The position numbers were made by a program, and so were the translations under genes. This document shows, one piece after another, positions 23,888 to 48,300 of a stretch of 64,000 nucleotides of DNA (position 1 is its first letter; each line of letters begins with the position of its first letter). Source of the stretch: Macrostomum lignano. Its lineage: Eukaryota. The notes beneath the pieces were generated by a model. That model saw only the letters and a program-made list of their open reading frames with translations. It made no database searches and had not been told where the DNA came from. Location: positions 26,235 through 90,234 of the forward strand of contig NIVC01003126.1 in NCBI GenBank assembly GCA_002269645.1. The letters are read 5' to 3'.

Positions 23888-26800
23888 TTAACGAGGTCGC
23901 AGATTGTAGCCGTGTTGCTGTTTCTCGGTTGATGTTTGTGTCTCCTCGTGTTTTGTTGCGATGTGGCGGTTCGCCGAACGCGTGCGATCAGCGTTGTCTA
24001 GTGACGGTAAAAACGTTGTCATGTCAGTGTTGATCTTCTTTAGTCGATGAATGTGCACGTAGAATTGGTGCTGATGAGGATCTTGCACATTGGCCAGGCG
24101 TGCCGTTGTCGGTGACGTTAGTTGGACCACTCGATATGGTCCTTTGTATTTCTGTGCGTGTTTGTGCGTTTGTTGCGGCGGATAGTGCAGGTAGACGATG
24201 TCGCCGGCTGTCAGAGTTGTCGATCTCGTGTCGGTGCCGGTGGTTAGAGCCACCTGATTGTCGATGTTGTGCTTGGCTACTTTCCATGCGAGGTGTAGTT
24301 GCGTGACGAACTTTTGAATGGACGTCGGGACTTCCACATATTGCGATGGTAGTAGTTGCTGTGCCAATAGGTTTGGTGGTTGGAAGTCTCGTCCAAACAT
24401 TAGAAAGAATGGCGTATTGTCCGTCGATCTATGAATAGCGCTGTTGTAGGCCATTGTTACGGATTGTAGGTAGATGATCCAGTCTTCCGGCTGTTGATGC
24501 GCGAAGTGCGTGATCATCTCATGCAGATTACGATGAAACCGTTCAACCATGTTTGCTTTCGGATTGTAGGTCGACGTGTAGATCTGCGTGATGTTGAGTA
24601 TCTTCACAACTTGCTGAAACAGTTGAGATACAAATTGTGATCCATTGTCCGACGTGAGATTCTTCGGTGAGCCGTACTTGCAAATAATGTCGTTGAAGAA
24701 ACACATTGCCACCGTTTGAGCTGTGATGTCCGGTATCGGTATAGCGATAGCAAACTTCGAGAAAATATCCAAGGCGGTTAGGATGTAGGTGTAGGCGATG
24801 CCCTGGAGACAGCTCGGTGGTAGTGGTCCGGTGATGTCGATGCTGAGACAGTCCATAGTTGTTGACTTCGGAATGGACTGTAGCTGTGGCTTCTGTCGTC
24901 GTCCCGTCTTTGATGCTGCGCATGAGTGGCAGTTGTTGCAATACTGCTTGATGTCGCCGTACATGCTTGGCCAAAAGTAGTATTGCTCCACTCTTGCAAT
25001 GGTTTTGGCTGCCGACAGGTGTCCAGCGAGTGGATTGTCGTGCAGTTCGTTGAGAATTGCCTGCCTAAACGAATATGGCATGTAGATTTTAGGTTTGTTG
25101 TCACTCATCCAGTAGAGTCGTGACTTGTTGATTGTTAAATGTTGTCGCTGCTTGCGCAGGAATTTTCGTTCCACGGGGCTGAGCTTGATGTCCTTGTCGT
25201 TGTTTTTAATTGCTTGGTAGAAGTAGTCGTTCTCGGTTTCATCCATCAACTCCTTGATGTTAGGAATTGGATGAATGGCGTTGACTTCGTAGGTTCTTGA
25301 CAGAGCGTCCGCAGCCTTGTTAGTAATTCCTGGTTTGTAGACGAGTTTGTAGTTGTAGTCCTGGATCTTGAGTGTCATCCTGATGAGTCGGTTGTTTGTT
25401 TGTCCTTTTGTAGTTACGACGTAGGTCAGCGGTGCGTGATCTGTGCGTACTATCGTCTGTAATGGAGATCCATAGATGTAGTAGTGAAACTGTCGTAGAG
25501 CGAACAGAACTCCTAGTAGTTCTCGTTCCGTAGCTGACCATTTTGTCTCATTCGGTTTAAGTGCTCGACTGACGTAGGCTATAGGTCGTTCCTTTTTGTC
25601 TTCAGTTTCCTGTAGTAGGACTGCTCCGAGTCCCGTTCCTGAGGCGTCTGTCTCGATGATGAAGGGTTTGTCGAAGTCCGGATGCTGTAGCAGTGCGTCT
25701 GATGTCAGCTGCCGTTTGATTTCGTCAAAACTTTCTTGTTGCTTTTGTGTCCAATTCTCTTGTTTCCACTTGTCGAACTTGAGCAGGTCGTACAGCGGTT
25801 TTGCTGTCTTCGCGAAGTTCGGTAAGAACTTTCGGAAGTATTGCGCTAGTCCAAGAAACGATTGGACCTTTGTTATGCTAGTTGGCGTAGGAAACTTTTT
25901 TACTTTCTCCACGTTGTCTGGGTCCGGTGAAATTCCTTTGGCTGTCACTTGGTGTCCTAGGTAACGTACGTTGTCTCGGAAGAATTTGCATTTCGTTGGT
26001 TGCAGCTTAAGACCTTGGCGTTGAATGAGCGCTAGTGCCTTCTCCGTAGCTTCATAGAGTCGTTGGAAGTCTTCTCCGTAGGCCAAGATGTCGTCGACAT
26101 AGTGCAACAGGTTCGTGCATCCTGCAAGCATGTATGCCGTTAGTCGGCTCATTGTTGCTGGGCTGTTGCTGAGTCCCATTGGCGATCGGTTGTACTCGTA
26201 GACTTGTCCATTGTAGGTCTTGAAAGCCGTGTACTGTCGTGATTCTTTCTCGATTTCAATTTGCCAAAATCCATGACGTAGGTCGAACACCGTGAACAAT
26301 TTTGCTGTGTTGAGCTTCGCTAGTAGCTCGGAGATCTTTGGTAGGCTTTGCTGATCCGTCGGTATATACTTGTTCAGCAGTCTGAAGTCGCATACCAGTC
26401 GTCTTTCGTTAGTCTCCTTCTTTTGTACCAGTAGGCACGGTGAGGAGTAGGCTGAAATTGCTTTGCTGATGATGCCGTGCTTTAGCATTTTATCGATAAT
26501 TTCGTCAAAGTGTTGTTGCAGATGCTTGGCAATCGGGTACGGCTTGCACTGAATTGGTTCCGTGTGTGGTAGAAGCTTGATTTCTTGTTTAATGTCTTTA
26601 GCGCGTCCGATGTCGTAATCATGATGGCAGAAGGCTTCGTTGTACTTCCACAACAGTTGTCGAACTTTCTTCTTTTGTTGTTCCGTGATCGGGCTGTCGT
26701 CCAAGTTGATTTTCTTTTGAAATTCTTCTTCTGTTAGTCGTGGAGTCGCGTGCTCAATCAGCATAACTGATGCTTGAGTATTAAGATGACCGATGCACAT

Positions 26801-29800
26801 TCCTTGTCGTAGATGAACCATTTCCGCGTTTGGGTTAAAGATTTGTACTGGCAGCTGCGTATCTTTTGCCACCAGCACTAGTGCCGTAGGCATCATGATT
26901 TGATGTTTTGCCGTGACTCTCCTGTGTGGATCAAATATCATTGCTTCATCTGCCGCGCTGGTCGTTTTCGCTCTGACCCAGCATGCGCTTTCAGGCTGGA
27001 TGATGACATCTTGCTGCAGAGTTACTTTTGGTAGTACTCGAATCTGGTTAATCAGTGGTTGCTCCACCGTGTCGATCCTAAACGTTTGCTTGTTGAAGTC
27101 GAAGGTCAATGGTAGTCGAAGCTGTTTGAACGTGTCTATTCCAACGATGACGTCTTGGTTTGGTAGTCTGTCGATGATGTACGTCGGGACCGTCAGCTGT
27201 TTATTTGCAATTTTCAAGTCGATATCTGCTTTTCCTAGGATGTTGAGTGAATGTCCTCCTGCTCCTGCAACTGCGATTGCTGCTGGTCGTACCGCGAGTC
27301 GTAGCTTGTTGCATAATTGTTGCGAGATGACTGTGATCGAGCTGCCTGAATCCAGTAGTGCTCGACATGGCAAGTTGTTGACAATGACCTGAGCCATTGC
27401 TTTGCCAATCTCGGCGTGTAGCGTGCAGACGTAGTTTTCCGGCCATTTTGGCTCGTGTTGTTCGGGCTGATAAATAGGTGGCTGCATTCTCGGTGCTGTT
27501 GGTGTTGTCGGAATCGATGGATACATTCGCGTTGATAGTGTTGGCTGTCCTTGAGTTTCACGCTGTGCGTCTTCTGTCAATTCCAAGTTTTTGTCTTCAT
27601 CCCTTGTCGTCTTTTGCATGATAGCGTTCACTGTTCGTTTCGCTGTAGGGCAAGTGTTGCTGAAGCATCGTACTATCGATGAGATGATAAAAATTGCTGT
27701 GACTATCCAAACAACGCAGGCGCTGTAGAAGATGAAGCCTTGATATAGGCTGCCTCTTCCGTTAAGCAGCTCCAAGAAGCTGTTTGTCCAAAACGATTGG
27801 ATGGCGTTGTCCATTGACACAAGGACCGGGAAATTGCGTGTTCCCGTTCCTTTATTCTTTCGTGTGAAGAGTTGACGAATCATTTTTCGTTGAGTGATAA
27901 ACGCTTGCAAGAAGTCGTTGATGGTCCATCCTGGTGTTATTTCATCGAGTTGGATATCGGCGAATGGTGTGTACTTCGTTCTGTTGAATCGTATCTTCAG
28001 ATCGTCCATATCGTACGTTTCATCGACAATCACCTCTGGTTCTGTGATGTTCGCTGTCGTTCCTGTCGTTTTAATGACATGTAGTGCATCGTCCAGTTGA
28101 TAGTAGTTTGCTGCAGTGGTGCAAGGTCTTGGTATTGCGGTGCCAACGATGATGTTGTGTACCGTGTCCAAGAATCCTTGGATCCTTTTGCCTTCGTAGA
28201 ATGCTTCAATTCTCGGCTTGTCGTAGCAAGTTGTTAAAGTGTTCGACGGTAAGATGTTGAAGTGCTGTATCGGCGTACACTTGTATATCAGGAGATGTCC
28301 ATATATCGGAATTGCCAGAACCTCTCTCATTCCAGTGATCTTGCGAAATGTCATCGTAGGGTTGACATAGTAGTTTTGTCTTGCGTAGTTCAAGTTGATT
28401 GCGTGCATCTTGCAAGTTAACTGAACCAGTGATCGATGTAGGTGATTTAGCTGGTTATGCAGATTGTGATCTAAAGCCGTGATCTTTGCTGACAGTAGTC
28501 GGTTCGACACCAATCGTGGACGTTCTATGTCGCGTCGTTGCCTTTCTTGTTGCTGATATGTTCCGTTTATGATTGCCAGGAAGGTTTGTTTGTCACTATC
28601 CTTTACATAGACTGGTATTTCTTGCTCCGAGATGAACAGCGTCTTGTCCGTATTCTTGCATTTGAGTTCTTGTTCGATCGGCGTCTTTTGAAACGTCAAG
28701 GCCAAGTCTCCTGCTTTTGCCAAAAACGTATTCGACAATAGTCCTCCTTCCACTGTGTGATACTTTTGAAGCTTGCAGTCAATTTCCGGTTCTACTTCCC
28801 ATGCGAAGAAATATTGTCGTGACTTGTACGGTTCCTCATAGTGTGAGTGTGCTCTGTGCTCAATCTGCCATCGATAGTTTTGATGATATGTTGGACTCAG
28901 TGGTAGACTGTGTAATTCTTCCTTTCGTAGAATTGGTGTTGGACACCATCCTTCACTGTATCGACATTCGCTTAGTTGCAGCTGTAACGATTCCATTTTC
29001 TCGTACGGATTGTAGTAGAATGGAATATTTCTGATCAAGTAGCTGTTACGTGCCATATATTCTTTCCATTTTCCGAAGAAGTGAATATATCGACCGTTGG
29101 CTGAATTCTTTGTTCTGAACAGCTGTGCGTTACCGACCTTCTCATCTGGTTCCAATTCACCATCCTTTGAAAATAGTGTTTGGTTCCATTGTAGGCATTC
29201 CGCGTGTGACACATGTAGCTCATGTTGTTTAAATCGGATCCGGTTCCATTGTCCGCGCCAAACTTTTTCCACCAGGTGCTTGTCTCTAAAGCACACTATT
29301 CCAAGTTGTCGATGCTTCTTGATGTTAGCCTTGTAGAGATCGAGTGTAATCTTCTTTGGCTTCGTCTGGTTTGTCTTGAAGTAGCTGCATTTGATGTCGG
29401 TTGGTATCTTGTAGATCATCGGTTGGATATGCGCATCCGTTGGACAGATCATTGGTTTTTCTGTTGCCGTTGCTTTGGCGACTACTGCTATCAGTAGTAT
29501 CACGATGATCCAGAGCAGCCAGTTTTTCCACTTCTTGGACCTTGCCGTTGTCTTTGCTGGCATTGGCTGCGATTGCCATTCGTTATCCTCCATGTCCGCA
29601 TCGTATTCTTTCGGTTGTTCCATTGGCTGTTTCAGGCGGAAGGCTTCTGATTTGCTTTGCTCTTTGGCTAGTTCAGTATCTTCGTCTGCAGCTTCTTCCG
29701 ATGTTTCCGTTGTTTCACTCCATTGCGTTTGGTATCTTTTCTCTGCCTTGTAGTCGACCGTTTGAATATAGGCTTCACCATTTCGTTTGTATCGGATCTC

Positions 29801-31375
29801 GTAGCATTCGTCGCTGTCGGAACTCGGCTTTTCTTTTATCTGTTCTTTTTCCATTTCTTCATCTTTCCATTGTATTTCGTAGCCTTGATCGCTGTCGGAG
29901 CTTAGATTTTCCGCTCTCAGTTCTTCCTGCATTCCTTCTTCGGCTCGGTATCCGTTCGTGTCATCATGCACCTCGCAGTCGTGATCGTTGCCGTAACTTA
30001 TACATTCTTCTTCTTCCCTCATTTCTTTGTCTTTCGTGCTTGTTTTGTTGTCATCCACTGTTGTCGATTCATAGTTGTTTTGTCTGCCAGTCTTCATCTT
30101 TTCTTCGTTGCCGGTGTCGCTCTCCGCCTCCTCCCTTTTCTGTTGATTTACTTTCTTCCTGTTTTCTCTGCTGTCTCCGGTGGTCTCTTTTAATTCGATC
30201 ATTTCGGTTTCATTCGCCTCTTCTGTGTTGTCAGTGTTGTCCTCGTGCGTCGTCTTCTTTTCGATCAAGCTGATGTCAACTTCCGGGACTGTGAAGTCCA
30301 TTTCCAAGTCGTCAATTGTGAACACTTGCTGTTCTTGCTGTTCATTTTCCGGTGTGTACGTGATGGCATTCGCGTATCGTGGCATTGCTTGCGTCGGCTG
30401 TCTTTGTGTGTACCTGGCGTTGCGTGGCCTGTAGCCATTATTTCTGAAGCGACCGTCGTTTCCGAAGCGGCCATTATTTCCAGAGCGGTCATTATTTCCG
30501 AAGCGTCTATCATTTCCGAAGCGTCTTATGCCTTGTTGTTGGCGATTTTGATATTGCTGCCATGGTTTCTGCGGCTTTTGATTGTTGAATATCTGTCGCG
30601 GCTTGTCGTACCTTGTTGACCAATGAGGACAATTAATCTGATAATGTCCTTCTTGTCCGCAGTAGTAACATCTGGCTGAGGCTTGTTCATTTCTTCTTTT
30701 TTGTTCGGCGATAGCAGCTGTCTGGTGCTGCATTAATTTGTTTAATTGCTGCGTCAGTTTCTGCACTTCATTGTTGCCTGTCGTCATTAATGGGGCACTG
30801 GCTTCCCATTGCATTCCGCACCGCAAAAGGTCTTCTTCGGTTTCGATGTTTTCACGCAAAAGTCTATCCCGAAGTGACGGCTGTGCGTTGTTTATTACGT
30901 GCAAGATTAGGTTTTGTTCGCGATCCATCAATCTCTGTCTCTCTCTGGCGGCCAATTCTGCCGCTCCCAGTGGCGGTTGATCTGCAGCTTGCAGCGGTGG
31001 CTGATGTAGTGCCTTAATTATCTGGCGGATATCGTCCACAAAGGCGAGGAAGGATTCTGTTGCCTGCATCCTTCTGTTATGTAATTTGTGCAGCAGCACT
31101 GATCTGTTTGTGCCGCAACGGTTGAAATGCGCGCGCAGTTGAATGATTAGTGCTGGATAATTTTGCTGTGTTGCCGCATCCAGCTTGCCGTAAATTTCTC
31201 GCGCAGTACCTTGGAGAAGAGGTGGCAGCAGCTGTGCCTTCTCTGGATTTTGTAGGTTGTACTCCCTACATACCAGGTCAAAATGGTCGACAAATGTGTT
31301 AAAATCTTTCTCCATCGAGAAAGTACCGACCGTTTCTTTGATGTCTCTGTGTACCGTTGGATTGCGCCGCGCCAT
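23888..31375 (-). CDS. Gag-glycoprotein(gB-like)-Pol polyprotein, 2495 aa
   Basis: Capsid-like N-terminus; CCHC knuckle CYYCGQEGHYQINC (30629-30670); signal WLLWIIVILLIAVVAKATA (29465-29521); Cys-rich ectodomain with RQRR (28532-28543); TM (27672-27739); protease LLDSGS (27341-27358); RT DFRLLN, FDLRHGFWQI, PMGL, YVDD; RNase H ETDASG, ERELL, RTDH; integrase HHCC, LD, SDNG, VERFH; GPY. Confidence 0.97.
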   Translation of the reverse strand: MARRNPTVHRDIKETVGTFSMEKDFNTFVDHFDLVCREYNLQNPEKAQLLPPLLQGTAREIYGKLDAATQQNYPALIIQLRAHFNRCGTNRSVLLHKLHNRRMQATESFLAFVDDIRQIIKALHQPPLQAADQPPLGAAELAARERQRLMDREQNLILHVINNAQPSLRDRLLRENIETEEDLLRCGMQWEASAPLMTTGNNEVQKLTQQLNKLMQHQTAAIAEQKRRNEQASARCYYCGQEGHYQINCPHWSTRYDKPRQIFNNQKPQKPWQQYQNRQQQGIRRFGNDRRFGNNDRSGNNGRFGNDGRFRNNGYRPRNARYTQRQPTQAMPRYANAITYTPENEQQEQQVFTIDDLEMDFTVPEVDISLIEKKTTHEDNTDNTEEANETEMIELKETTGDSRENRKKVNQQKREEAESDTGNEEKMKTGRQNNYESTTVDDNKTSTKDKEMREEEECISYGNDHDCEVHDDTNGYRAEEGMQEELRAENLSSDSDQGYEIQWKDEEMEKEQIKEKPSSDSDECYEIRYKRNGEAYIQTVDYKAEKRYQTQWSETTETSEEAADEDTELAKEQSKSEAFRLKQPMEQPKEYDADMEDNEWQSQPMPAKTTARSKKWKNWLLWIIVILLIAVVAKATATEKPMICPTDAHIQPMIYKIPTDIKCSYFKTNQTKPKKITLDLYKANIKKHRQLGIVCFRDKHLVEKVWRGQWNRIRFKQHELHVSHAECLQWNQTLFSKDGELEPDEKVGNAQLFRTKNSANGRYIHFFGKWKEYMARNSYLIRNIPFYYNPYEKMESLQLQLSECRYSEGWCPTPILRKEELHSLPLSPTYHQNYRWQIEHRAHSHYEEPYKSRQYFFAWEVEPEIDCKLQKYHTVEGGLLSNTFLAKAGDLALTFQKTPIEQELKCKNTDKTLFISEQEIPVYVKDSDKQTFLAIINGTYQQQERQRRDIERPRLVSNRLLSAKITALDHNLHNQLNHLHRSLVQLTCKMHAINLNYARQNYYVNPTMTFRKITGMREVLAIPIYGHLLIYKCTPIQHFNILPSNTLTTCYDKPRIEAFYEGKRIQGFLDTVHNIIVGTAIPRPCTTAANYYQLDDALHVIKTTGTTANITEPEVIVDETYDMDDLKIRFNRTKYTPFADIQLDEITPGWTINDFLQAFITQRKMIRQLFTRKNKGTGTRNFPVLVSMDNAIQSFWTNSFLELLNGRGSLYQGFIFYSACVVWIVTAIFIISSIVRCFSNTCPTAKRTVNAIMQKTTRDEDKNLELTEDAQRETQGQPTLSTRMYPSIPTTPTAPRMQPPIYQPEQHEPKWPENYVCTLHAEIGKAMAQVIVNNLPCRALLDSGSSITVISQQLCNKLRLAVRPAAIAVAGAGGHSLNILGKADIDLKIANKQLTVPTYIIDRLPNQDVIVGIDTFKQLRLPLTFDFNKQTFRIDTVEQPLINQIRVLPKVTLQQDVIIQPESACWVRAKTTSAADEAMIFDPHRRVTAKHQIMMPTALVLVAKDTQLPVQIFNPNAEMVHLRQGMCIGHLNTQASVMLIEHATPRLTEEEFQKKINLDDSPITEQQKKKVRQLLWKYNEAFCHHDYDIGRAKDIKQEIKLLPHTEPIQCKPYPIAKHLQQHFDEIIDKMLKHGIISKAISAYSSPCLLVQKKETNERRLVCDFRLLNKYIPTDQQSLPKISELLAKLNTAKLFTVFDLRHGFWQIEIEKESRQYTAFKTYNGQVYEYNRSPMGLSNSPATMSRLTAYMLAGCTNLLHYVDDILAYGEDFQRLYEATEKALALIQRQGLKLQPTKCKFFRDNVRYLGHQVTAKGISPDPDNVEKVKKFPTPTSITKVQSFLGLAQYFRKFLPNFAKTAKPLYDLLKFDKWKQENWTQKQQESFDEIKRQLTSDALLQHPDFDKPFIIETDASGTGLGAVLLQETEDKKERPIAYVSRALKPNETKWSATERELLGVLFALRQFHYYIYGSPLQTIVRTDHAPLTYVVTTKGQTNNRLIRMTLKIQDYNYKLVYKPGITNKAADALSRTYEVNAIHPIPNIKELMDETENDYFYQAIKNNDKDIKLSPVERKFLRKQRQHLTINKSRLYWMSDNKPKIYMPYSFRQAILNELHDNPLAGHLSAAKTIARVEQYYFWPSMYGDIKQYCNNCHSCAASKTGRRQKPQLQSIPKSTTMDCLSIDITGPLPPSCLQGIAYTYILTALDIFSKFAIAIPIPDITAQTVAMCFFNDIICKYGSPKNLTSDNGSQFVSQLFQQVVKILNITQIYTSTYNPKANMVERFHRNLHEMITHFAHQQPEDWIIYLQSVTMAYNSAIHRSTDNTPFFLMFGRDFQPPNLLAQQLLPSQYVEVPTSIQKFVTQLHLAWKVAKHNIDNQVALTTGTDTRSTTLTAGDIVYLHYPPQQTHKHAQKYKGPYRVVQLTSPTTARLANVQDPHQHQFYVHIHRLKKINTDMTTFLPSLDNADRTRSANRHIATKHEETQTSTEKQQHGYNLRPR

Positions 31376-32151
31376 GTTGTTGATAGGATAGAACGGTAGT
31401 TCAAGATCTGGATCGATTTGTAACGGATCGTCCAGTGTGGTGTTTGCCTCGGAATAAACCTCAACTGTAACGAATTGCCTTGTAGTGTCGATCTGTTATT
31501 CGCTGGCCTCGAAGTTGCGGCTTGCTGCCACTGGTTGTCCTCAAATGAACTTGTTCTGTTCGCTTGCCGTTTTCGCACTTATGCGGCGTCCCGCAAAGTG
31601 TATCCTGAAGTGGACTTTGTCTTCTTGCTTTGCAAAGACTTTTTTCTCTTCCCTGACTTTCTCTCTTTTGTCAATTAACTCCGCTCTCCACGAAGTGTCA
31701 ATTAATTTCGGTTTTGTTTTAGTTTTTGTGCCGGCAAAATGTTTCAGTTATTTTTTGTTTGTTTGCGTCGACGATTCTTTGATTTTCGGTTTGTTTTCAG
31801 TGTACCGACGAAGTTAATTTCGGTTTTGTTTTAGTGTGTATTGATTAATAATTTTTTTGTTTATTTTCAGTGTACCGGACGTTGTTTTTCGGTTTTGTTT
31901 TAGGTTTACGCTTGCTCGAGCTCGTTAAAAACTAAAATTTAACACGCGTGCTCAAACGTTACTCAAAATTGACAGGTACTCAAGCCTGTATACCTAAGCT
32001 TTTACTCGAGTTTCAAATCGTACAAAAATCGAAAAGTGTCGAAAAGTGTTACCTCTAACACGTGCGCGCAAAATTAATGAAGTCGCTCTTTCGTCACTTT
32101 ACAATAGCTTGGCCAGGCTATTGCTCAAAAGTTTGAGTAGTGCCGAGAGGG

Positions 32152-32162
32152 CGAGATCACCA
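32152..32162 (-). promoter_or_regulatory. Putative primer-binding site (TGGTGATCTCG)
   Basis: Starts with TGG, 2 nt inside the 5' LTR boundary. It could pair with a tRNA-Trp-type 3' end (CGGGGUCACCA) using two G-U pairs; the tRNA identity is an inference. Confidence 0.6.
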
Positions 32163-32164
32163 AT

Positions 32165-33235
32165 TGATGTGTTCCTTATTACCAGTCCTCAACTGTAATC
32201 AAGGAACAATCACTTCTAGCTCTGTAGCTAGGCAACCCAGTAATCAAATGAAGGTATTCAATTACCTTTAATCAGGATTCTTAGATTTCGTTCTTGAGTC
32301 GTTCTCAACTGTAGATCTCTCAGTAGATCTTGTAGACTTCTAGACGTCTTCAGGTGTCGATCGGGTCCGAGTTTCCTTCTTCTTTCCTTTAGAAGTATTT
32401 CCGGCCGGAATCTGTCGTTCGGACCAATGGGAAGCTTCCAAATTAACAATGGGGATCCCTGCGCCAAACTGCGGTTTAATATAAGCCTACTCCTTCTAGT
32501 AGTGCCTCTATGCACTCTAGGTATGGCTCCGGAAACCACTGATAGTCTTCTAAGATCTATCAGGGGCAGTCCTTCTGGAGACTGCAACCAGTAGAGTCTA
32601 AACAGACTCAGGAGTCTCAACAGACTCACTATAAACTCAAGTCACTCTTGGACTTGAGCGAGACGTCTCAACCAACAGGCGCAAATGAGTAAGGCTTACC
32701 GCAAGAACTCGACCACGTCTTCGAGTTGCTTCAGGAAGTCTGCTGCAGATCTTCCTCTTCGGAGCTTTCTCTCTCGGAGATTGTGGCTCCGGGTCCGTTC
32801 CGGACCACTTGTATTTATAGGCAAATGGACCCCCATGAGGTCACGTGGGTCCAACTCTTCAGCTGTCAAAAAGGTCACGGTTTGGCTGCTGTCAAACTTG
32901 GCAGGGTAGAAAGTTACTCCATTGGTTCAGTGTAAAAGCGCGTGATTGGTCATCGCATTCGAGTTATTTTTAGTTACATTTGATTGGTTCACGTGCGTAC
33001 GGTTGAATGATGCATCTCTCCTGGGGTTTGCGTTCGACACGTACAGGTTACACGTGATTGGGTGATTTCTAAATTTAGCATGCTCAAGGTCTCTCTTTTT
33101 CTATTGGTTAGTCAGCATATACTTATAATTCAAAGCATACCTTTATTCATGCTCTTCAACTTACTACTAAATAAAATGTGTGAGTAGTACGTTAACACTT
33201 TTATGTCTTTTTTACGAAAGGTAGAACACTCTACA
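32165..33235 (-). repeat. 5' LTR (1071 bp) with TATA box and CCAAT/E-box cluster
   Basis: On the minus strand: TATAAAT at 32813-32819, preceded by about 5 CCAAT and 3 CACGTG motifs. Confidence 0.95.
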
Positions 33236-33625
33236 CTCTCCTCTCGTCTCCTCTCCTCTCCTCTCCTCTCGTCTCCTCTCCTCTCCTTTCCTTTCCTCTC
33301 CTCTCCTCTCCTCTCCTCTCCTCTCGTCTCCTCTCCTCTCCTCTCGTCTCCTCTCCTCTCCTCTCCTCTCCTCTCGTCTCCTCTCCTCTCGTCTCCTCTC
33401 CTCTCCTCTCCTCTCCTCTCCTCTCCTCTCCTCTCGTCTCCTCTCCTCTCGTCTCCTCTCCTCTCCTCTCCTCTCGTCTCCTCTCCTCTCCTCTCCTCTC
33501 GTCTCCTCTCCTCTCCTTTCCTCTCCTCTCCTCTCCTCTCCTCTCCTCTCCTCTCGTCTCCTCTCCTCTCCTTTCCTCTCCTCTCCTCTCCTCTCCTCTC
33601 CTCTCCTCTCCTCTCGTCTCCTCTT
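33236..33625. repeat. (CTCTC)n microsatellite, right of the LTR element
   Basis: Pentamer repeats with CTCTCGT variants. Confidence 0.97.
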
Positions 33626-34606
33626 ACTTGACTTAACTGCAGGGCAGTCCGAAGACGCAGCGGGGAGGCGAGAATCGCCCATTCCGCTAAACCCTGGTGA
33701 CCCGCTTCGGCAATGGTGCAGGGCCATGCAGTCAGGGCGGTCCGCCAGTACGTCCTGCAGCGTTTTCTTCATTAGGGAGAAAGAGGCTCGTCTAGTTGCC
33801 CGAAGGAACCGGACGAGCCGTGAGATGTTCTCGGGTCTACAAACGTCATCGATGGATGGGTTTGGACCGAGGTGGTTTAGCCGCTCCCTGGTGAAGAACG
33901 GGCATTGACAGACGAAATGTTGAGCATCTTCGTTGTCGTACAGTACTCGCAAGAGGGGCACAGTTCATTCCGGATGTCGCCCCGGAGGAAGCAGTGCCTA
34001 GCGAAGCAGCCATGACCCGTGAAGGTCATAGCAAGAGCCCGGATGTCCTTCCTGCTTTGGTTCAGGAGGACAGTTCGAAGCTTTCGAGATGGACGAGGGA
34101 CCGCCGCACGTGATTGGCGGCAGGTGGTGAGGTTCATCCATCTGTCCCTGTGCAGGGCGGAGGCCCAGGCAACAATGCTGCGATTGATGGTGGCCGCAGG
34201 GATTGGAGCCAAGGGCAGGGGTCCCTGGAGGGAGCCGCCACTTCCTTGTTTTGCAAGCGAGTCGGCTAGCTCGTTTCCAGGGAAGCCCGCGTGACCTGGG
34301 ATCCATTTGAGCTGGACAGCATTTTTGCGTCCCAGCGTATTGAGCATCCGGACGCAGTCGGAGACCGTCTGGGAGGCCGTAGTGGTGTGACAGACGGCTA
34401 TATAGCAGAGCAGCCTGACTGTCGGGGTGAAAAACTATAGTTTTTCCGGAAGTTTTTTGCTGCATACCTCTGCAGTGTGCAGGAGCTAATAGCAACTGGA
34501 CTTCGTTCTGGAAGACAGTATAGAGAGTCTTCCAGTGTGCTGGGCATGCGTGGCGAGCACGCGGCCATTGGTGAGAAAGCAGACCCCAAAGCCGGGGAGG
34601 CCGTCT
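33626..34606 (-). mobile_element. Degenerate 5'-truncated non-LTR retrotransposon (RNase H, CCHC finger, 3' UTR)
   Basis: Frameshifted RNase H motifs GFGVCF, TVFQNEV, PDSQAAL and WIPGHAGFPGNELADSLAKQG. Then HGCFARHCFLRGDIRNELCPSCE / DNEDAQHFVCQCPFF. Confidence 0.88.
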
Positions 34607-35386: not shown

Positions 35387-35750
35387 TGTCATGCGCTAGG
35401 TTCTCTGTATCTGGCCCTTGAGGTAAAATTTCGCCAACCCCTGTTTTAGAACATATGGGCCACCTCGTCTTGGGTGTTTATGTCCTGTCAAGTTGTTTAA
35501 CAGGTCAACCTGCCCTGGGCCGATCTTAATTAATGATCACCTATAGCTACCATGGCATTTTAATAGTCAAATAGTTTAAGGAAAGCGATCCTTTTGCGAA
35601 ACATTTGCGAAACAGCGAAACATTTTGCACGTTAAAAGTCTTTGTGTTTTCGTACCGATTCAAAAGCGGCGTTTTCAAGGAATCGGTCACGTTAGGTGAG
35701 TTGAGAATAAAGCAGAACTTTAAGTTTTCTATTCTTACTTCTACATTTAA

Positions 35751-36450
35751 GCAAGGACGACTTAAGTAGAAGGACGGGAAACCTCGTTTCTTAGAAAAGT
35801 TTTGAAGGCACTTTTTCCCGAAAAAATACACTACGGAGATAGGAAGTTTTCATTTTTTCAGCACAAAAATTGTTATTGCGTTTGATAGGAGGCAGATCCA
35901 GTGTTCATCTTTTGATATGTTGTGCCTTTTTTATTGCTCTATCGATATTTATAAAGCTTTTCGTTCAGAAAATTAGGATTCTATGTTAATTTTTTATTCT
36001 ACGTATATTTTCGCGCGTCTTGTGCTTGAAATACATTAGAATGCCACGGCTCGGCTCTTTAGCTTCATGAGTCTTTTTTATCATTCTTACCCGACTGTTT
36101 AGCAAATATTTGTAACAGAGATGATAAAATAGGTTCATAAAACCAAATATTGGAGCTGTGTCATGCATTTTTGTGATTTTTAGATACAGGAAATATACGT
36201 AGAATAAAAAATTAACATAGAATCCTAATTTTCTGAACGAAAACTTTTATAAATATCGATAGAGCAATAAAAAAGGCACAACATATCAAAAGATGAACAC
36301 TGGTTCTGCCTCCTATCAAACGCAATAACAATTTTTGTGCTGAAAAAATGAAAACTTCCTATCTCCGTAGTGTATTTTTTCGGGAAAAAGTGCCTTCAAA
36401 ACTTTTCTAAGAAACGAGGTTTCCCGTCCTTCTACTTAAGTCGTCCTTGC
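35751..36450. mobile_element. Foldback/MITE element with 260-bp terminal inverted repeats
   Basis: 35751-36010 is the reverse complement of 36191-36450 with only a few mismatches. Flanked by direct ATTTAA (35745-35750, 36451-36456). Confidence 0.88.
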
Positions 36451-36779
36451 ATTTAAGTCAGATAATAAAAAGTAAACCCAGAGCAAGCAATGGTGACAGT
36501 GAATTTCAAAATATTAAATTTTTCAAAGTGTTAAAGTATCTGTAAGACTTCAGGTCGATGATAATATCAAATAAACTTCAAAAGTTCAACTTACATACTA
36601 TTTTATTTATCTTCAGCATTCAGGTTTTATAGATTTCACTTAAAAATACTGTTTTTTTAACTTCCTAGTTTTATCATTGGATATTTAGCTTCTTAAATTT
36701 ATCATGTCTGTCTATTCTAATTGTATTTTTTACATAAGACTATTTATCTAAATTTAGCAATTAAAAACATTAACATATT

Positions 36780-38130: not shown

Positions 38131-41100
38131 ATGGCTCAATCTAACATGTCAACAGTAGCCAGTGCTGCTAACAGTCTAATTGAAGTGGATATTGACAAGC
38201 AGATCAATCTAATCAATTTAAGTAGGCTATCATTGCCTCAGCACACAGTTGTAAACTGCATATTTGTTAGTCCAAACTCAGAACTTAGTTTGGCTCAGAA
38301 CAGTTTGGTAAAAGTGAGAGCAGAGTGTCCATGCTCCGATGACAATACATGGAAGTCACCTGTTCGTCTTGCATTTGTCAGAGTTTGTAGCGATTCTAAA
38401 GGTCAGGAAGGTGACGGCCAGCTTCTTGCCGGCCATCCAAGTCTGATTCACAACCTGTTACGAGCTAAAACTTCGAGACAAGCTGACGTCGTTAAATGTC
38501 ATATTTACTGCCCTTCAGTGAGGCTTAGAATTGAGCAGTGCTCAACCAACGATACTGCATCAGCTAAGCGAGCACAAAGCATTCAGTTAGCATTGTCTCC
38601 TTCGCCACACTACCCTATCGGATATGAATACAAGTCCAGTTTGTTTGAGCTGTTCTCAACCCAGCAGTGCTTGTATCTGGGCGATCTTGTAACTGTGCCT
38701 GCATGCCAAACAGATGCTGCGACTCACGAGCTTGCGACTGGCACTGTGCTGTACTATACGGTAAGATTTAAGCCAAGAAATTTATAATACTCAAAAAAGC
38801 CTATTTTAATCGGTCAAGTTTAGAAAAAGCCGAAAGTAATGGTAGATTTTTTATTAATACTACTTGCTTTTACTAAGTAAGTAGTCCGATTGATTTTTTG
38901 TCAGTATATTTACCATGAACACGGATAACACGGAGCTTCACAAAAGTTCCATATGACACGGAGCTTGGTTTTGGATGGTGTCACCGAAGGCATTGTGCCA
39001 GGGTGCTTGGACCTCTTGCGAGTAATTATATTTCTGTGATATGCTATGATTTTGTTTTCTAATAGGGCAAATGTGCAACCGACAGCTCAGCCGCAGCTAT
39101 TGCGCGGCGCATCTGAAGGCTGCGTATGGCTGTTCAGTCCAAGGACTGTGGGGTCGCCACTCACACCCTCAATTACCCCAGCTAATGCTGGCACCCATTT
39201 TACAGCTGGGTAAACTGAATTGCAATGCAGAGTTAAGTGTCTCGCTCAAGGACATACAAATTGTTTCGAGTGAGTCAAGAATCGAACCCGCGACCTTCAA
39301 GTCGTGAGTCCGACGCTCTGACCACTAAGCTACAACCCCAGTTTTATTTTTACAGTTTTGAAGCATCAATCCAAGGTTGACAAGTCGCAATGAATAAAAA
39401 TATTCACGTAATTAATAATTCTTTCCTAATTGAACAGGTGACCGAAGTCAGCTCGGCTCTGAGCACCTTGCCGGGCCAATACTGGCCGGCTTGGAGTTCA
39501 CAGCAGCCTCCGAGTGCAAGCAGCCAACAACAATTACAAATCGGCTGTAAGTATCCTACGCACCGCGTCTTTATCCTTCGCCATCGCTACCGTTAGCCCG
39601 CAGGTTTTGTTAACGACTGACCCACTTTGCTGCGTCGATGCGTTGACGCTTCGATTGAGAATAGTCTTCCAGCCGTCACTGTGCTCCTGCACGGGCCAGC
39701 GGTTGCGGCAAAGCTGCCGCCGCTCTAGCCGTAGCTGACCGTCTCAGTTTACACGTCCGAATTGCTCGATGTGAAAATTTAACCGTCCAACTGCCTGGTT
39801 CGGTCAGTAGTAGCGACGGGTCTGCTCTTGGCTCTGCGTCTGACTATGGCGAGGAAGATTTTTCCACCATCCTGTCCGGTGACGCAGCCCTGCCGAGACT
39901 GCTGCTACTCACTGATGTCGGCTTGTTAGCTAGAAAACGGGACGGTTTGTCGGGTGCCGATCCGGCGGCTGTGACTGCGTTGGCTCGGTTGCTGAATCAG
40001 ACTGGCCGACAGCAGCAGGGTTGGTTGGAGCACACAGGTGTTACACTCGCTCACACGTGATTTACAGCGGCCTAGTTTAAATGCTTTTAAAAAATCGTAT
40101 TTGAAGCCAAAAAAATTGTCATTGTCCCGCAGACGGTCAAGGCCGGCAGCCGTCAGTCATAATTGGCACCTGTCAATCACTCAGCCAGTTGGACGCGGGC
40201 TTGCTGGCCCTGTTCCAGCTAGACCTGGCCGTGCCACCGCCAACCGAGTCGGAACGTCGGCAAGCTCTGCTAAATGCCGGCGCTGGTCTGGAAAGCGACG
40301 CCGCATTGCTGGACCGCTTAACTCAGCGCAGCGTCGGTTTCAACGCCGCCGAGCTCTGGGCGCTGAGACGGCGCGCTCGTTTGTCGGAATTTGGCTACCA
40401 AGATTCTGCTGAAGAGACTATTGATCTTACCGCTACTAGAAGCAAGCTTACAACAAATATCGAAGGTCAGATTCGTCCCTCTGCCCTGTCTGCCGCCCTG
40501 GATGCGACGCTGAAAGCTCGAGCTGCTTCTCTCGGCGCGTCGAGTCTGCCTACAACCGCCGCTGTAGCCTGGGAAGACGTCGGTGGTCAGGAAGCGGCCG
40601 TGGCTGAAATTTTAGCGACAGTGGAGGCGCCATTGAAACGGCCGGAGCTGCGACGGCACCGACGCTGCGGCCTGCTGCTCTACGGTCCGCCTGGCGTTGG
40701 CAAGACCCTGCTGGCCAGGGCGGCGGCCAGCCAGTTGGGGCTGTCCTTCCTGAGCGTGAAAGGTCCCGAGCTCGTCAACATGTACGTTGGTCAATCCGAA
40801 GCGAACGTCCGGGCACTGTTCGCTGACGCAATTCGTCTTGCGCCTTGCGTTGTATTCTTCGACGAATTGGACTCGATTGCGCCGGCTCGTGGCGGCGGCG
40901 GCGGAAGCGGTGCGGTTGACAGAATCGTTTCCCAGCTGCTCGCCGAACTTGATGGCATCAGAACGGCCGACGCTGCTGTTTTCGTCATTGGGGCCACCAA
41001 CCGAGCCGACCTGCTAGATCGCGCTCTCCTTCGGCCTGGCCGATTCGATCAGGCCTTGCTAATTGCGCCGGCCGAAAGTCTGGAGGATAAAACGGCCCTT

Positions 41101-41385
41101 TTCAGGGCTCAATTACGGCGACGCACGTGCGCACCGGATGTTGACGTTGAGACGCTGGCTGCCGCTCTGCCGTCGCTTGTCACTGGTGCTGATGTCATGT
41201 CGGTGGTGTCCAATGCCGCCGATCTGGCCTTGCGAGAGGCGGTTTCCGCCATAGACAGCGGATCGGAGGACGAGCTGAGTGTGAATTGTTGCCTGACTCA
41301 GGCCATGCTGCTTAGCTGCGCCAAAGAATTGGCGCCCTCCGTGACTGCTGAGCAAATGCTGGTTTATCGAAGCATGCAAGTTTGA
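38131..41385 (+). CDS. PEX6: Peroxisomal AAA ATPase PEX6 (exon 3 appears disrupted)
   Basis: Exons about 38131-38760, 39438-39546, 39604-40037, 40133-41385. D2 domain WEDVGG...GLLLYGPPGVGKTLLA...FLSVKGPELVNMYVGQSEANVR...FFDELDSIAP...DRIVSQLLAELDG...ATNRADLLDRALLRPGRFD. The D1 Walker A (VLLHGP/SGCGK) is split by a 1-nt frameshift at about 39697, and there is an in-frame TGA at 39618. Confidence 0.88.
39055..39338 (-). mobile_element. tRNA-derived SINE, copy 1
   Basis: Minus strand has a tRNA-like head (A box TAGCTTAGTGG, B box GGTTCGATTC), then GTCCTTGAGCGAGACACTTAAC...CCCAGCTGTAAAATGGGTGCC, a V/Meta-type SINE core. Related copies at 44.3 and 61.7 kb. Confidence 0.85.
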
Positions 41386-44600: not shown

Positions 44601-45322
44601 TTGAGCAAAGTGCAAAAGAGTAAGGAGTACTGATTACCTTGTGGTAAATACACAAGTTTTTGAATGTTTGAAGACAGTAAAAGCTGCAGTTTATCAAGGC
44701 TGCATGTACATCCTGCTCCTACGAGCGGAATTAAACATATATGAATACCGCTATAATACTTAAGCATGACTGTAATGATTCTCTAGTGATAGTTTAAATG
44801 GAAGGACAATATAAGGTTATTCGTAAGTGGGACTTTAGGATAGTCACCCGACTCACGAGACGACCGTCCGGCGCTACCTGGCGATTAAATGGCACAAGTC
44901 CTTGCAAAAATATAGCAATGCAGTTTCGCGTGCCCTGAATATGGGAGACACCGCACAGACCCACGGCATGGTACTTGCACTGTGAAAATTGTACCATACT
45001 TATGGATACTACTGAATAATTCTCATAATTAATGTTTGCATTTATTTTTCTTGTTTGCGTTTGTTGTTTCTGCTCTAAAAATAACCCACCACTATCCTTA
45101 GGTCAACAGCATTATCCAGAGGTTTCAAGTGAAGAAATGTATTGGGTGTAGATTAGGTTTGACCATAGACATTTTATTTTATCCTACTAAAGGCTGATTT
45201 TTGACAATGCGTTAATCAATTAATAAATTATTATGTTCAATACGCATACATGTCTCATGCATAGATGTTACTGAGCTTGATCTAGCCATTATTTCATATT
45301 CCAGTATCGCCAAGTTGGCGGC

Positions 45323-48300
45323 ATGTGCGACGATGAAGACGCATACCCCTACTACGACCACCGTGGCTGGCGGCGTCTAAGGCCGCAACAGTCGCTAGAA
45401 GAGATTTATAACTTACTGCGCGACTTCGCTACTACTGATGAAGTAGTTATTAAAGCCCAAACAAAAACTGAGAGAGCGGATAAGCTTCTGTCTGATAACT
45501 CAGAAAACCACTGTCTCTGCAGGATTAAATTTGAACAGAACGGGCAGACAGTCGGCATTCCTGAGGGTAAATTTAAGGACTGTAAAAAAATTGTCCTACT
45601 AAACAACAACCGGAAGTATGAATACAACGATCTGGTTGTGGTGCGTGTTATCGAACAAAGAGTTGGCCGACCAGTTGAAGGCATCATCAAGACTCGTTAC
45701 GAAGTAATCCCAGCTTACAGATTGTACCGACCTGAAAAATTCATTGGCAAACGAACAACTGTGCTGTGCATTGTTCACCTGGCCGACTCTTTCAATTCTT
45801 GGGCCCAGCCGGTCTCAGACGAGACCATTACCAGAATTATTCTGCCAAGCAGGGCCGCCTGTGCATGTGCGGCAGACGGCGACGCTTGCTACGTGAATCT
45901 GTTAAACCCGGAAGATCGCGGCTCAGATAAACAACTTTTCGGTCGAGTGGTCGCCATAGAACAGCAGGCGCACAAGTTGAAGCATAAACTGTTGCTATGC
46001 CGCATAGTGCCCGGTAGCTATGCTCATATGGAGCCTCTCTGCGGCACTGTGCCGAGAATCACGTACGACAACTTGCATGCTCAACGCTTCGATGCCGAAG
46101 TGACTAAAAAGTTCAAGGAACACATCGGCAAGGAAAGTCAAGGCGCCGACATGGAATACGAAGAACGATTGCGATTCGCCAATTCTAACTATGTGACTCT
46201 GTTTTCCGTCAAGCTACGAGTAGATCCGAATACGAGTAATGTGCCAATTTTTCTGCCTAGAGCGGCAGTGAAAGTTAACAAGGATAACTGCGACAAGCTC
46301 TTTCTGGTGTGCTACTCACTCTGGCAGGTCGGGTATCCGTATCCGAAAGGACACGTTGTCGCCATAATAAACAAGAAAGATTTCGAACCAATGCGCGATC
46401 TATTGTTGTCAGTTCAATTTTCATTGCCGTTCATAAAAGCCGACGAAGAAATGGAGGCCAAGTTGAAGACAGAAGTATCCAAAGTTGCCAGTGAGGTCAG
46501 CAAATGCTGCAGCGATGCCGGCAGAGAAGACTGTCGCAGCCTTCTGGCAATCACTATCGATGACGAATCGACGCGAATGTTCGACGATGCTTTATCACTT
46601 GCAGCCATTTCCGAGAATGTCTACGAAATTGGAGTCCACGTGACCGATGCGTCCTACTACATTGAGAATAATTCTGCCTTGGACAGAACAGCACAAGAGA
46701 ATCTCATTGAAATTGAAGGCAACGATGCTGTTAAACACTCTGCACACTTATTTCCGCAAAGTCTGTCTCTGAACTGGCTCAGCTTAGTTGCCAATCAGTC
46801 AAGAAAGTGTTTATCAGTGTTTTTCACTGTCCGATTTGATAAGGCCAGCAGTTCATTCAGCATAGAATCTAAAAGAATTCTTCCTACCGTGATTAAAGTT
46901 CGTTGCAATTTGAAAAAGTCACAAGTTACCAAAGTGCTTACTCAGAATGAGTCACCCGAACGTAGAGATGACAAAGAAGTTGCTAGCATGCTGAAATTCC
47001 TCTGCAAGATTTCCATTCGATGGCGACTGGATCGACTCGGTGAGGCAGCCTTCTGCCAGTCGCCAAGAACCGGTGAGCCTCCCGTCGATCAAAACTTCGA
47101 AGCTAGCTGTTTGGTAGAGGAATTCATTCTCAAAGCTAATTTTGCCGTGGCAGAATTTCTAAAGAAAGAAAAAGCCGGAAACTACCCGATTCGAGTGCAG
47201 GACCCTCCCAGAGAAGCGGATATTGCCGCGTGGCTAAGAAATCACGGCGCCACTGTCGATCACTCGTCGGAGCTCTCGCGCTACTTATACGATCTGTTAG
47301 TGATTGTTCCGAATGAGCCTGCCAGCAGTCTGATTCTTGATCGCAGAGATTTTGACGATCTGCGAGTCATTTCTGACAAGAGAAAGTTTCTTTTGCGTCT
47401 GTTCTCTGAGAAGCAGTTCTCTCACCTGTTGCCCGCGATATCTGCGTGGCATCGGATTTCAAACAGAGCCGAGTATCGCATTGTTAGGAACGAGCCCAGC
47501 AAGCATTTCAGCTTGAACACCGAGGACTATGTCCAGTTTACAAGTCCTCTGTGGCGCTATACCGACTTGCTGATTCACAGGCATTTGAGAGTCGCTTTAA
47601 AAGTCTGCGATCAGAGCAGTATCGGCGACGCAGCCGAAGACATACAAAAATTTGAGCAATCTGTTAATAAAAAAGAAGTTAAGCTGATCAATCTACAGAA
47701 GAAAAGACAAGAAATTGACTTCGGACTAAACCTTAATTCGAATACTCAAAGATTCTTTCCTGCCACTGTAGAGTCAGTCGGGGAAGGCTATATTAGTCTT
47801 GCCTGCTCGCCAAGTACCAAAGCGGCTGTTCTTTCGAATCTGATCGTAAATCCCAGCCACCTGGGCCTGTTCTCGTCGCCAACAATCAGCGAAGGCTTAA
47901 TGGAATTGGCTTGGAATTTGCGGGTTTATTATCACGAAGACTTCGTTCGGCGAGGTCAGTGTGTTGCCAAGATAGATAGAAGCGTGGAGCCGCAAACAGA
48001 CAGAGGGCAACTACAAAGAGATTCGAATAGCATTCAAGACGGCGTTACCCAGGATGTGCTACTCAAGATTCAGAGTTTAAAAAGAAGCATTTGCGAAGCT
48101 GTTGGTGACTACAGTCAAATAGACATCCACGATCTAAGGCTGATGTTAGCCGAAGTGGGACGTGTTGAGGAACAGGTGGACATTAATGAGGTTCACTCGG
48201 ATCCCGGAATACAACGAACAAATATCTTAAACGCGTTGATCAAGCTTCATCTAAAACTAACTATTGGCAAAATCCTCAAAGTGCAGCTTTGCAGCGATTC

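Follow-up and report, generated by a model that had tools for sequence, protein, structure and literature searches.

The 64-kb window, by which we mean the whole stretch of Macrostomum lignano DNA analysed here, carries on its minus strand an LTR retrotransposon whose envelope region (27672-29464) corresponds to residues 678-1275 of a 2,535-codon open frame (23888-31495). The env is not a separate gene but part of one Gag-Env-Pol frame, in which it lies between Gag and the protease. The features of the element, in the order in which the minus strand is read, are as follows.

33236-33239 and 22271-22274, no strand: target-site duplication CTCT (4 bp), within a CT-rich microsatellite.
32165-33235, minus strand: 5' LTR, 1,071 bp, with TG...CA ends; of the 1,072 bases aligned with the 3' LTR, 2 differ.
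32151-32162, minus strand: primer-binding site (PBS), a 12-mer 2 nt inside the 5' LTR.
23888-31495, minus strand: single open frame of 2,535 codons, with Gag, acidic linker, signal segment, Env, TM, protease (PR), reverse transcriptase (RT), RNase H (RH) and integrase (IN).
30596-31375, minus strand: putative Gag capsid region and one CCHC knuckle (30623-30670; zf-CCHC, aa 276-291, E 0.003).
29561-30328, minus strand: fast-evolving acidic linker, 30% D/E, 19-23% identical to the same-genome copies L021 and L022.
29465-29527, minus strand: internal signal segment (TM1), from hydropathy, residues 657-677, with a basic N-flank and a predicted A-T-A signal-peptidase site.
27761-29464, minus strand: Env ectodomain, predicted class III gB-type fold, 12 Cys, 5 sequons.
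29246-29260, minus strand: predicted fusion loop 1, W-R-G-Q-W, which caps a long beta-hairpin formed by model strands E51-70 and E73-83; a role in fusion is presumed.
29066-29089, minus strand: predicted fusion loop 2, aromatic-rich, env residues 126-133, preceding model strand E134-151, its role likewise presumed.
28532-28543, minus strand: furin-type site RQRR, polyprotein residues 985-988.
28364-28504, minus strand: central helix of 47 residues (model H321-367), the equivalent of gB domain III, with an NPT motif after it; the helix matches the gB central helix in the alignment.
27671-27742, minus strand: Env C-terminal TM (TM2), residues ~1252-1275, a predicted stop-transfer with basic residues downstream.
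27122-27391, minus strand: aspartic protease, residues 1369-1458 (PF13650, E 1.7e-9; PF13975, E 2.2e-8).
25946-26425, minus strand: reverse transcriptase (YVDD), residues 1691-1850 (PF00078, E 1e-27).
25355-25753, minus strand: RNase H, residues 1915-2047 (PF17919, PF17917).
24560-25078, minus strand: integrase zinc finger and core, residues 2140-2312 (PF17921, PF00665).
22275-23345, minus strand: 3' LTR, 1,071 bp.

The carrier is a Ty3/gypsy LTR retrotransposon. Its LTRs, 99.8% identical to each other, have TG...CA ends and are accompanied by a PBS and a target-site duplication, and the Pol domains follow one another in the order PR-RT-RH-IN. In a Pfam scan these domains matched gypsy-type families, which we take to be markers of gypsy and not of BEL/Pao, and BEL/Pao families were absent. 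The CTCT duplication of the window copy is weak as evidence because it sits in a repeat; 4-bp duplications surround all four other full copies and all six single LTRs that were readable. That the element prefers microsatellites as targets can be discounted, because the sequence flanking other copies is unrelated. The frame likely starts at Met41 (position 31375), and the relative P0002 starts at the corresponding methionine. The Gag capsid assignment is deduced from position and from 70% identity to the copy L021, the zf-CCHC match being a weak one that falls under the Pfam cut-off. With an intact gag, a gB-type env and pol between its LTRs, and several copies in the genome, the element is an 'errantivirus' of the GAG-ENV-POL, HSV/gB type in the operational sense of Chary and Hayashi.

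Elsewhere in the window lie an intact-looking piggyBac-type transposase of 566 aa (17535-19235, minus strand; PF13843, E 6e-71), an AAA+ ATPase in a single 426-aa frame (40105-41385, plus strand; PF00004, AAA_lid_3) and a HELZ2-like gene with very long exons (45281-53156, plus strand), in which a 1,274-aa frame holds RNB and OB_HELZ2 and an AAA_11 helicase is found downstream. There are also a MITE-like inverted repeat (35724-36477), with 287-nt arms that are 94% complementary and 180 nt apart, and a perfect 103-nt inverted repeat at 58884-59147.

The original prediction described the env as a class III, herpesvirus gB-type fusogen of about 600 residues, with 12 ectodomain cysteines, five N-glycosylation sequons, an RQRR site and a C-terminal TM. 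All of these counts are exact for the 598-aa sequence, and the three peptides that were quoted in it are present in the translation. Two things went unmentioned there: the internal signal segment immediately ahead of the env, and the fact that Gag and Pol flank it within one frame. The 12 cysteines lie between the two hydrophobic segments (polyprotein residues 684, 703, 735, 767, 844, 851, 907, 946, 1028, 1073, 1090 and 1125) and the sequons are NQT 709, NQT 771, NGT 977, NIT 1149 and NRT 1171. At the sequence level, this is the layout of a type I membrane glycoprotein, namely a signal, a Cys-conserved ectodomain and a C-terminal TM. When 44 relatives were aligned, in rows chosen by similarity to the query, ten of the 12 cysteines were invariant in the rows covering them and the remaining two were kept in 37 of 38, so that the pattern is beyond chance. 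The same-genome copies L021 and L022, 64-65% identical to the window env, retain all 12 cysteines and all five sequon positions. The furin-type site reads RHKR in both of these copies and KQRR in L013, and R-x-x-R-type basic motifs are present there in most relatives. According to the sequence and one predicted monomer model, the putative fusion-loop tips are aromatic at env residues 69-73 and 126-133. Most relatives are also aromatic at the tip of loop 1; the loop sequences differ among them, and the window lineage is without the CC pair found in loop 2 of most relatives.

A PDB search with the single sequence returned only four matches, all unrelated and at E≥0.72, and found no solved relative. 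The window Env matches PF24664 (Monjiviricetes fusion glycoprotein) with an E of 3e-4 and 19.4 bits, below the gathering cut-off of 27 required for membership, and has no match to PF00606 (herpesvirus gB) at E≤0.1; a match to DUF4885 (E 0.003, far under its cut-off) was taken as noise. An exhaustive search yielded 53 relatives, and an alignment, A1, was built from the query and 44 of these, the longest polyproteins being left out. When the A1 profile was compared with the PDB, all 23 matches at E≤10 were herpesvirus gB, and for 13 the E-value was under 1e-5. Its alignment to residues 463-654 of a gammaherpesvirus gB spans the central helix, the NPT motif and the CY.RP..G.L...N...C region, exactly the stretch that had been aligned with gB by eye in the original prediction, and correctly so.

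The AlphaFold model based on A1, a monomer (mean pLDDT 80.5, pTM 0.58), contains long beta-hairpins, the 47-residue helix and C-terminal helices. In a Foldseek search of the PDB with this model, 33 of 33 among the matches listed were gB (best E 6e-23, TM ~0.42). VIA-align, run on one and the same predicted model against 48,161 chains, gave Z≥8 for five chains, all gB; the best of these (Z 11.6) has 414 residues aligned at an rmsd of 8.3. Rhabdovirus G and thogotovirus GP follow at Z 5-6, and PH domains make up the remainder. Many PH domains align to model residues ~30-305 with Z 5-6.5, as expected of a PH-like domain. The predicted structure is thus a multi-domain, gB-like one, sharing with herpesvirus gB the putative fusion hairpins, the PH-like domain, the long central helix and the crown domain that characterize class III. 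It differs from gB in that it is shorter and part of a retroelement polyprotein, and the resemblance is to be read at TM-scores of ~0.4 and 9-15% identity. In a protein atlas its neighbours are the Monjiviricetes, rhabdovirus G and gp64 clusters, a placement that is weak evidence on its own because the recognition value is low; low-ranking atlas rows for arenavirus GP and ISAV HE were taken as noise. AlphaFold with Foldseek, which had been named beforehand as a check, returns a class III fold with gB as the best match. Backed as it is by the profile search, by two structure aligners on one model and by the atlas, the assignment to class III is, as a prediction, secure.

The same genome contains at least 77 env matches, 64-100% identical to that of the window, 11 of which lie in open frames of at least 2,460 aa. 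In the seven other two-LTR copies that were tested, the LTR pairs are 99.6-100% identical, and over 1,488 aa the window polyprotein shares 95% identity with a named M. lignano protein. The sequences indicate that the window element is young and recently active. The dN/dS of env is 0.048 in the comparison with L013 and 0.040 with L003, while that of the acidic linker is 0.55-0.67 with close copies; L021 and L022 keep their 64-65% env identity at saturated synonymous sites. These values indicate that env is under purifying selection. Synonymous distance to L013 is uneven along the element (env 0.53, RT 0.31, gag 0.18, protease 0.04), a pattern suggestive of recombination between subfamilies. Two types of LTR, of ~864 and 1,071 nt and 80% identical over 660 nt, are associated with nearly the same coding region (L024-L029). 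A solo LTR on another contig (L038, C12:421983-423054), 99.8% identical, has the same sequence on both flanks as the window element (window 21315-34218): one insertion exists both full-length and as a solo LTR, be it an allele, a duplicated chromosome or an assembly effect.

Among the relatives of the env, Gag marks are found upstream in 23 of 54 and Pol upstream in none, and a protease follows downstream in 13 of 53, many of the rows being fragments. The named ones are proteins of the nematodes Meloidogyne and Panagrolaimus and of M. lignano itself, and the closest identifiable kin in sequence are other Gag-Env-Pol retroelements. A quick tree, computed from 31 env regions after removal of every fragment shorter than 350 aa and of several further rows, joins the window protein to the same-genome copies, the P0004 family and one other protein, with an SH-aLRT of 99; its long branches are unsure. 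P0004 represents a second, distant family of single-frame Gag-Env-Pol elements in M. lignano (2,852 aa), 30% identical to the window element in env and 43% in RT, with an insertion of ~220 aa near the furin site. P0005, an env relative of 754 aa with 25% identity along most of the protein, falls among the flatworm envs; the protein is without Gag or Pol, and its contig is 2.5 kb long.

This kind of element is already known and the family apparently is too. According to Chary and Hayashi (eLife 2026, PMC13524379), the HSV/gB type is the only ENV in the errantiviruses of Nematoda, Bryozoa and Platyhelminthes, where the gene order is GAG-ENV-POL and the ectodomain may lie between a pair of TM segments. 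The window element shares with these the gene order and a gB-type env between two hydrophobic segments, but is distant from them: RT identity is 27-34% to five of these relatives, against 43% to the second M. lignano family, and the flatworm envs form a supported group of their own in the quick tree. Supplementary file 1 of the same article lists, for M. lignano, Platyhelminthes_Rhabditophora_Mlig_errantivirus_2, an ENV_HSV element with 16 copies and LTRs of ~864 nt. It has the same 12-nt PBS as the window element, its host is that of the named matching proteins, and its LTR length is close to that of same-genome copies with ~855-868-nt LTRs, the same PBS and an env 92-95% identical to that of the window. 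The window copy differs in its 1,071-nt LTRs, which are ~80% identical over 660 nt to the 864-nt type. From the shared PBS, the env identity to copies with the shorter LTRs and its own longer LTRs, it is best regarded as a sister subfamily of the published element. The terms 'polyprotein' and 'single ORF' are absent from the main text of PMC13524379, which cites Sacco et al. 2022 for the flipped gene order.

Other LTR elements with a captured fusogen, namely Ascaris Tas, mosquito BEL/Pao elements whose env is likewise gB-like, and the hookworm Atlas virus, belong to BEL/Pao and not to Ty3/gypsy. Tas had been offered as a precedent in the original prediction; its gB-like env is borne out by PMC9094657, but Tas is placed there among the belpaoviruses, so that the parallel does not extend to the carrier. 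Atlas virus is described in the same article as encoding a single polyprotein, like the window element, but with the order Gag-Pol-Env and a class II env. Our search of the literature for gag-env-pol retrotransposons found only Chary and Hayashi (PMC13524379); one for gag-env-pro-pol gave no match, and no paper was found on the envelopes of Macrostomum LTR retrotransposons.

The reading that we favour, and consider probable, is that the env is the class III gB-type fusogen of a recently active Ty3/gypsy element whose Gag-Env-Pol chain would be threaded twice through the ER membrane and give rise to enveloped particles. The whole of Gag-Env-Pol would be made as one polyprotein. Gag would remain cytosolic, the internal signal segment would take Env into the lumen, and a signal peptidase cut behind this segment would separate Gag from Env, leaving Gag membrane-anchored. 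Env would be glycosylated, disulfide-bonded and probably cut by furin, and TM2 would bring protease, RT and integrase back to the cytosol, where the element's protease could release Pol from the Env tail. Gag, Env and Pol would then be synthesised 1:1:1 on one membrane, with Gag and Pol tethered to it. Enveloped particles would bud, and predicted fusion by Env trimers would carry them into adjacent cells; as for Drosophila gypsy, the most plausible targets would be germline or stem cells.

Several observations are consistent with this scheme. A hydrophobic segment precedes env in 20 of 22 proteins tested, and in 18 of these K/R exceed D/E ahead of it. In the window element TM1 has a basic stretch upstream and a small-residue motif at its end, after which the mature N-terminus would begin. 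The positive-inside rule, applied to the basic flanks before TM1 and after TM2, would place both Gag and Pol on the cytosolic side and Env in the lumen. We infer cleavage and topology from the sequence alone; the later processing, budding and spread are proposed steps as well. The KQRR of the close subfamily L013 counts against the furin step. Equimolar Pol is unlike what retroviruses do, and other mRNAs or processing routes may therefore exist. The element encodes no gH/gL/gD partners, and herpes gB requires gH/gL to fire (PMC13524379).

An Env that has the same fold in the same element might also serve without free particles, either in direct cell-to-cell transfer or, chiefly, as a membrane scaffold bringing Gag and Pol together for assembly inside the cell. 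Env must be translated and folded for Pol to form, so that constraint could arise from this alone, the fusion-loop sequences vary among relatives, and for most of these elements, according to Chary and Hayashi (PMC13524379), it is not known how they are transmitted. We nevertheless regard this as unlikely, since cysteines, sequons, aromatic loop tips and a basic cleavage site are retained at saturated synonymous distance while the linker drifts, and a scaffold alone would need no fusion machinery. Slightly less likely still is that the frame does not yield one chain, Env coming from a spliced or trans-spliced mRNA or Gag being split off during translation. There are Met codons just ahead of the signal segment (aa 625, 635 and 645), and in the relative P0012 a canonical 2A StopGo motif (residues 200-207; for 2A, see the preprint 10.64898/2026.09.24.754024) immediately precedes the signal segment. 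This motif at a Gag-Env junction fits a need to separate the two proteins, and means that other routes exist. A motif search found it in P0012 alone among 55 proteins, with no NPG in the window polyprotein, and the frame is open across both env junctions in copies that are 65% identical. Four contigs were also aligned; their status as RNA is a guess, so that they do not bear on transcription, and among 15 of the 28 joints listed none removes gag or env with canonical splice ends. That env is a decaying or neutral passenger is very improbable: although many genome copies are broken, this is refuted for the recent past of the lineage by the dN/dS of 0.04-0.05 and by an identity of 65% despite saturated synonymous sites.

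The remaining alternative, a recent capture of env from a herpesvirus or from one negative-strand RNA virus (a nyamivirus or a chuvirus), bears on the donor, on which the original prediction had also touched. Its gB-like fold is borne out; a single donor is not indicated, nyamivirus-like, entomopox and herpes proteins scoring alike. The best solved-structure matches are herpes gB. Among predicted viral structures, Foldseek places Beihai rhabdo-like virus 3 (E 2.5e-25) and Midway nyavirus (4.8e-25) at the top, just above an orino-related virus, suid betaherpesvirus gB (6.4e-24) and entomopox proteins, all of the top matches being at 9-14% identity. Within A1, PF24664 matches 23 of the 45 members at E≤0.01 and PF00606 four. 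The Monjiviricetes glycoproteins (Nyamiviridae, chu-like, xinmo-like) are thus both the top predicted-structure matches and the top Pfam family, but they are stand-alone viral genes at 9-14% identity, and the window Env is under the PF24664 cut-off. Each of these rankings could be taken as pointing to a donor. Against this, the viral matches are interleaved and all at 9-15% identity, the nearest identifiable kin are Gag-Env-Pol retroelements, including those of Meloidogyne and Panagrolaimus, and the PDB ranking may mirror which class III proteins have been solved. Word-indexed homologue searches, with one and three matches, leave the donor unsettled because no viral protein is among them. An ancient association is argued for by Chary and Hayashi (PMC13524379), and we find a recent capture improbable. 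As viral families score alike and the identifiable relatives are retroelements, 'gB-type' names a fold and not a donor.

The assembly route may be the newest part of the favoured reading. Nematode ERVs with a continuous gag-env-pro-pol frame and a Nyamiviridae-like env have reportedly been described by Sacco et al. We tentatively suggest, as a possibility about which we are more reserved than about the fusogen itself, a route not shown before for any retroelement in the literature searched: a single chain woven through the ER in the manner of alphaviruses and flaviviruses, with Gag held on the Env signal segment, Pol on the Env tail, and a gB-type Env that would fuse without gH/gL-like partners.

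As a discovery the window element adds little; it is a clean, well-supported example of a gB-type env in a flatworm GAG-ENV-POL gypsy element. It sharpens a point left by the survey of Chary and Hayashi (PMC13524379), namely how the single Gag-Env-Pol chain would be processed and how such elements would enter cells. A partner-free gB-type fusogen, if true, bears on the evolution of the herpesvirus fusion machine. If the favoured reading is true, the several young, intact subfamilies of M. lignano would also make a workable animal model for the spread of a retroelement from soma to germline or stem cells by means of a class III envelope.
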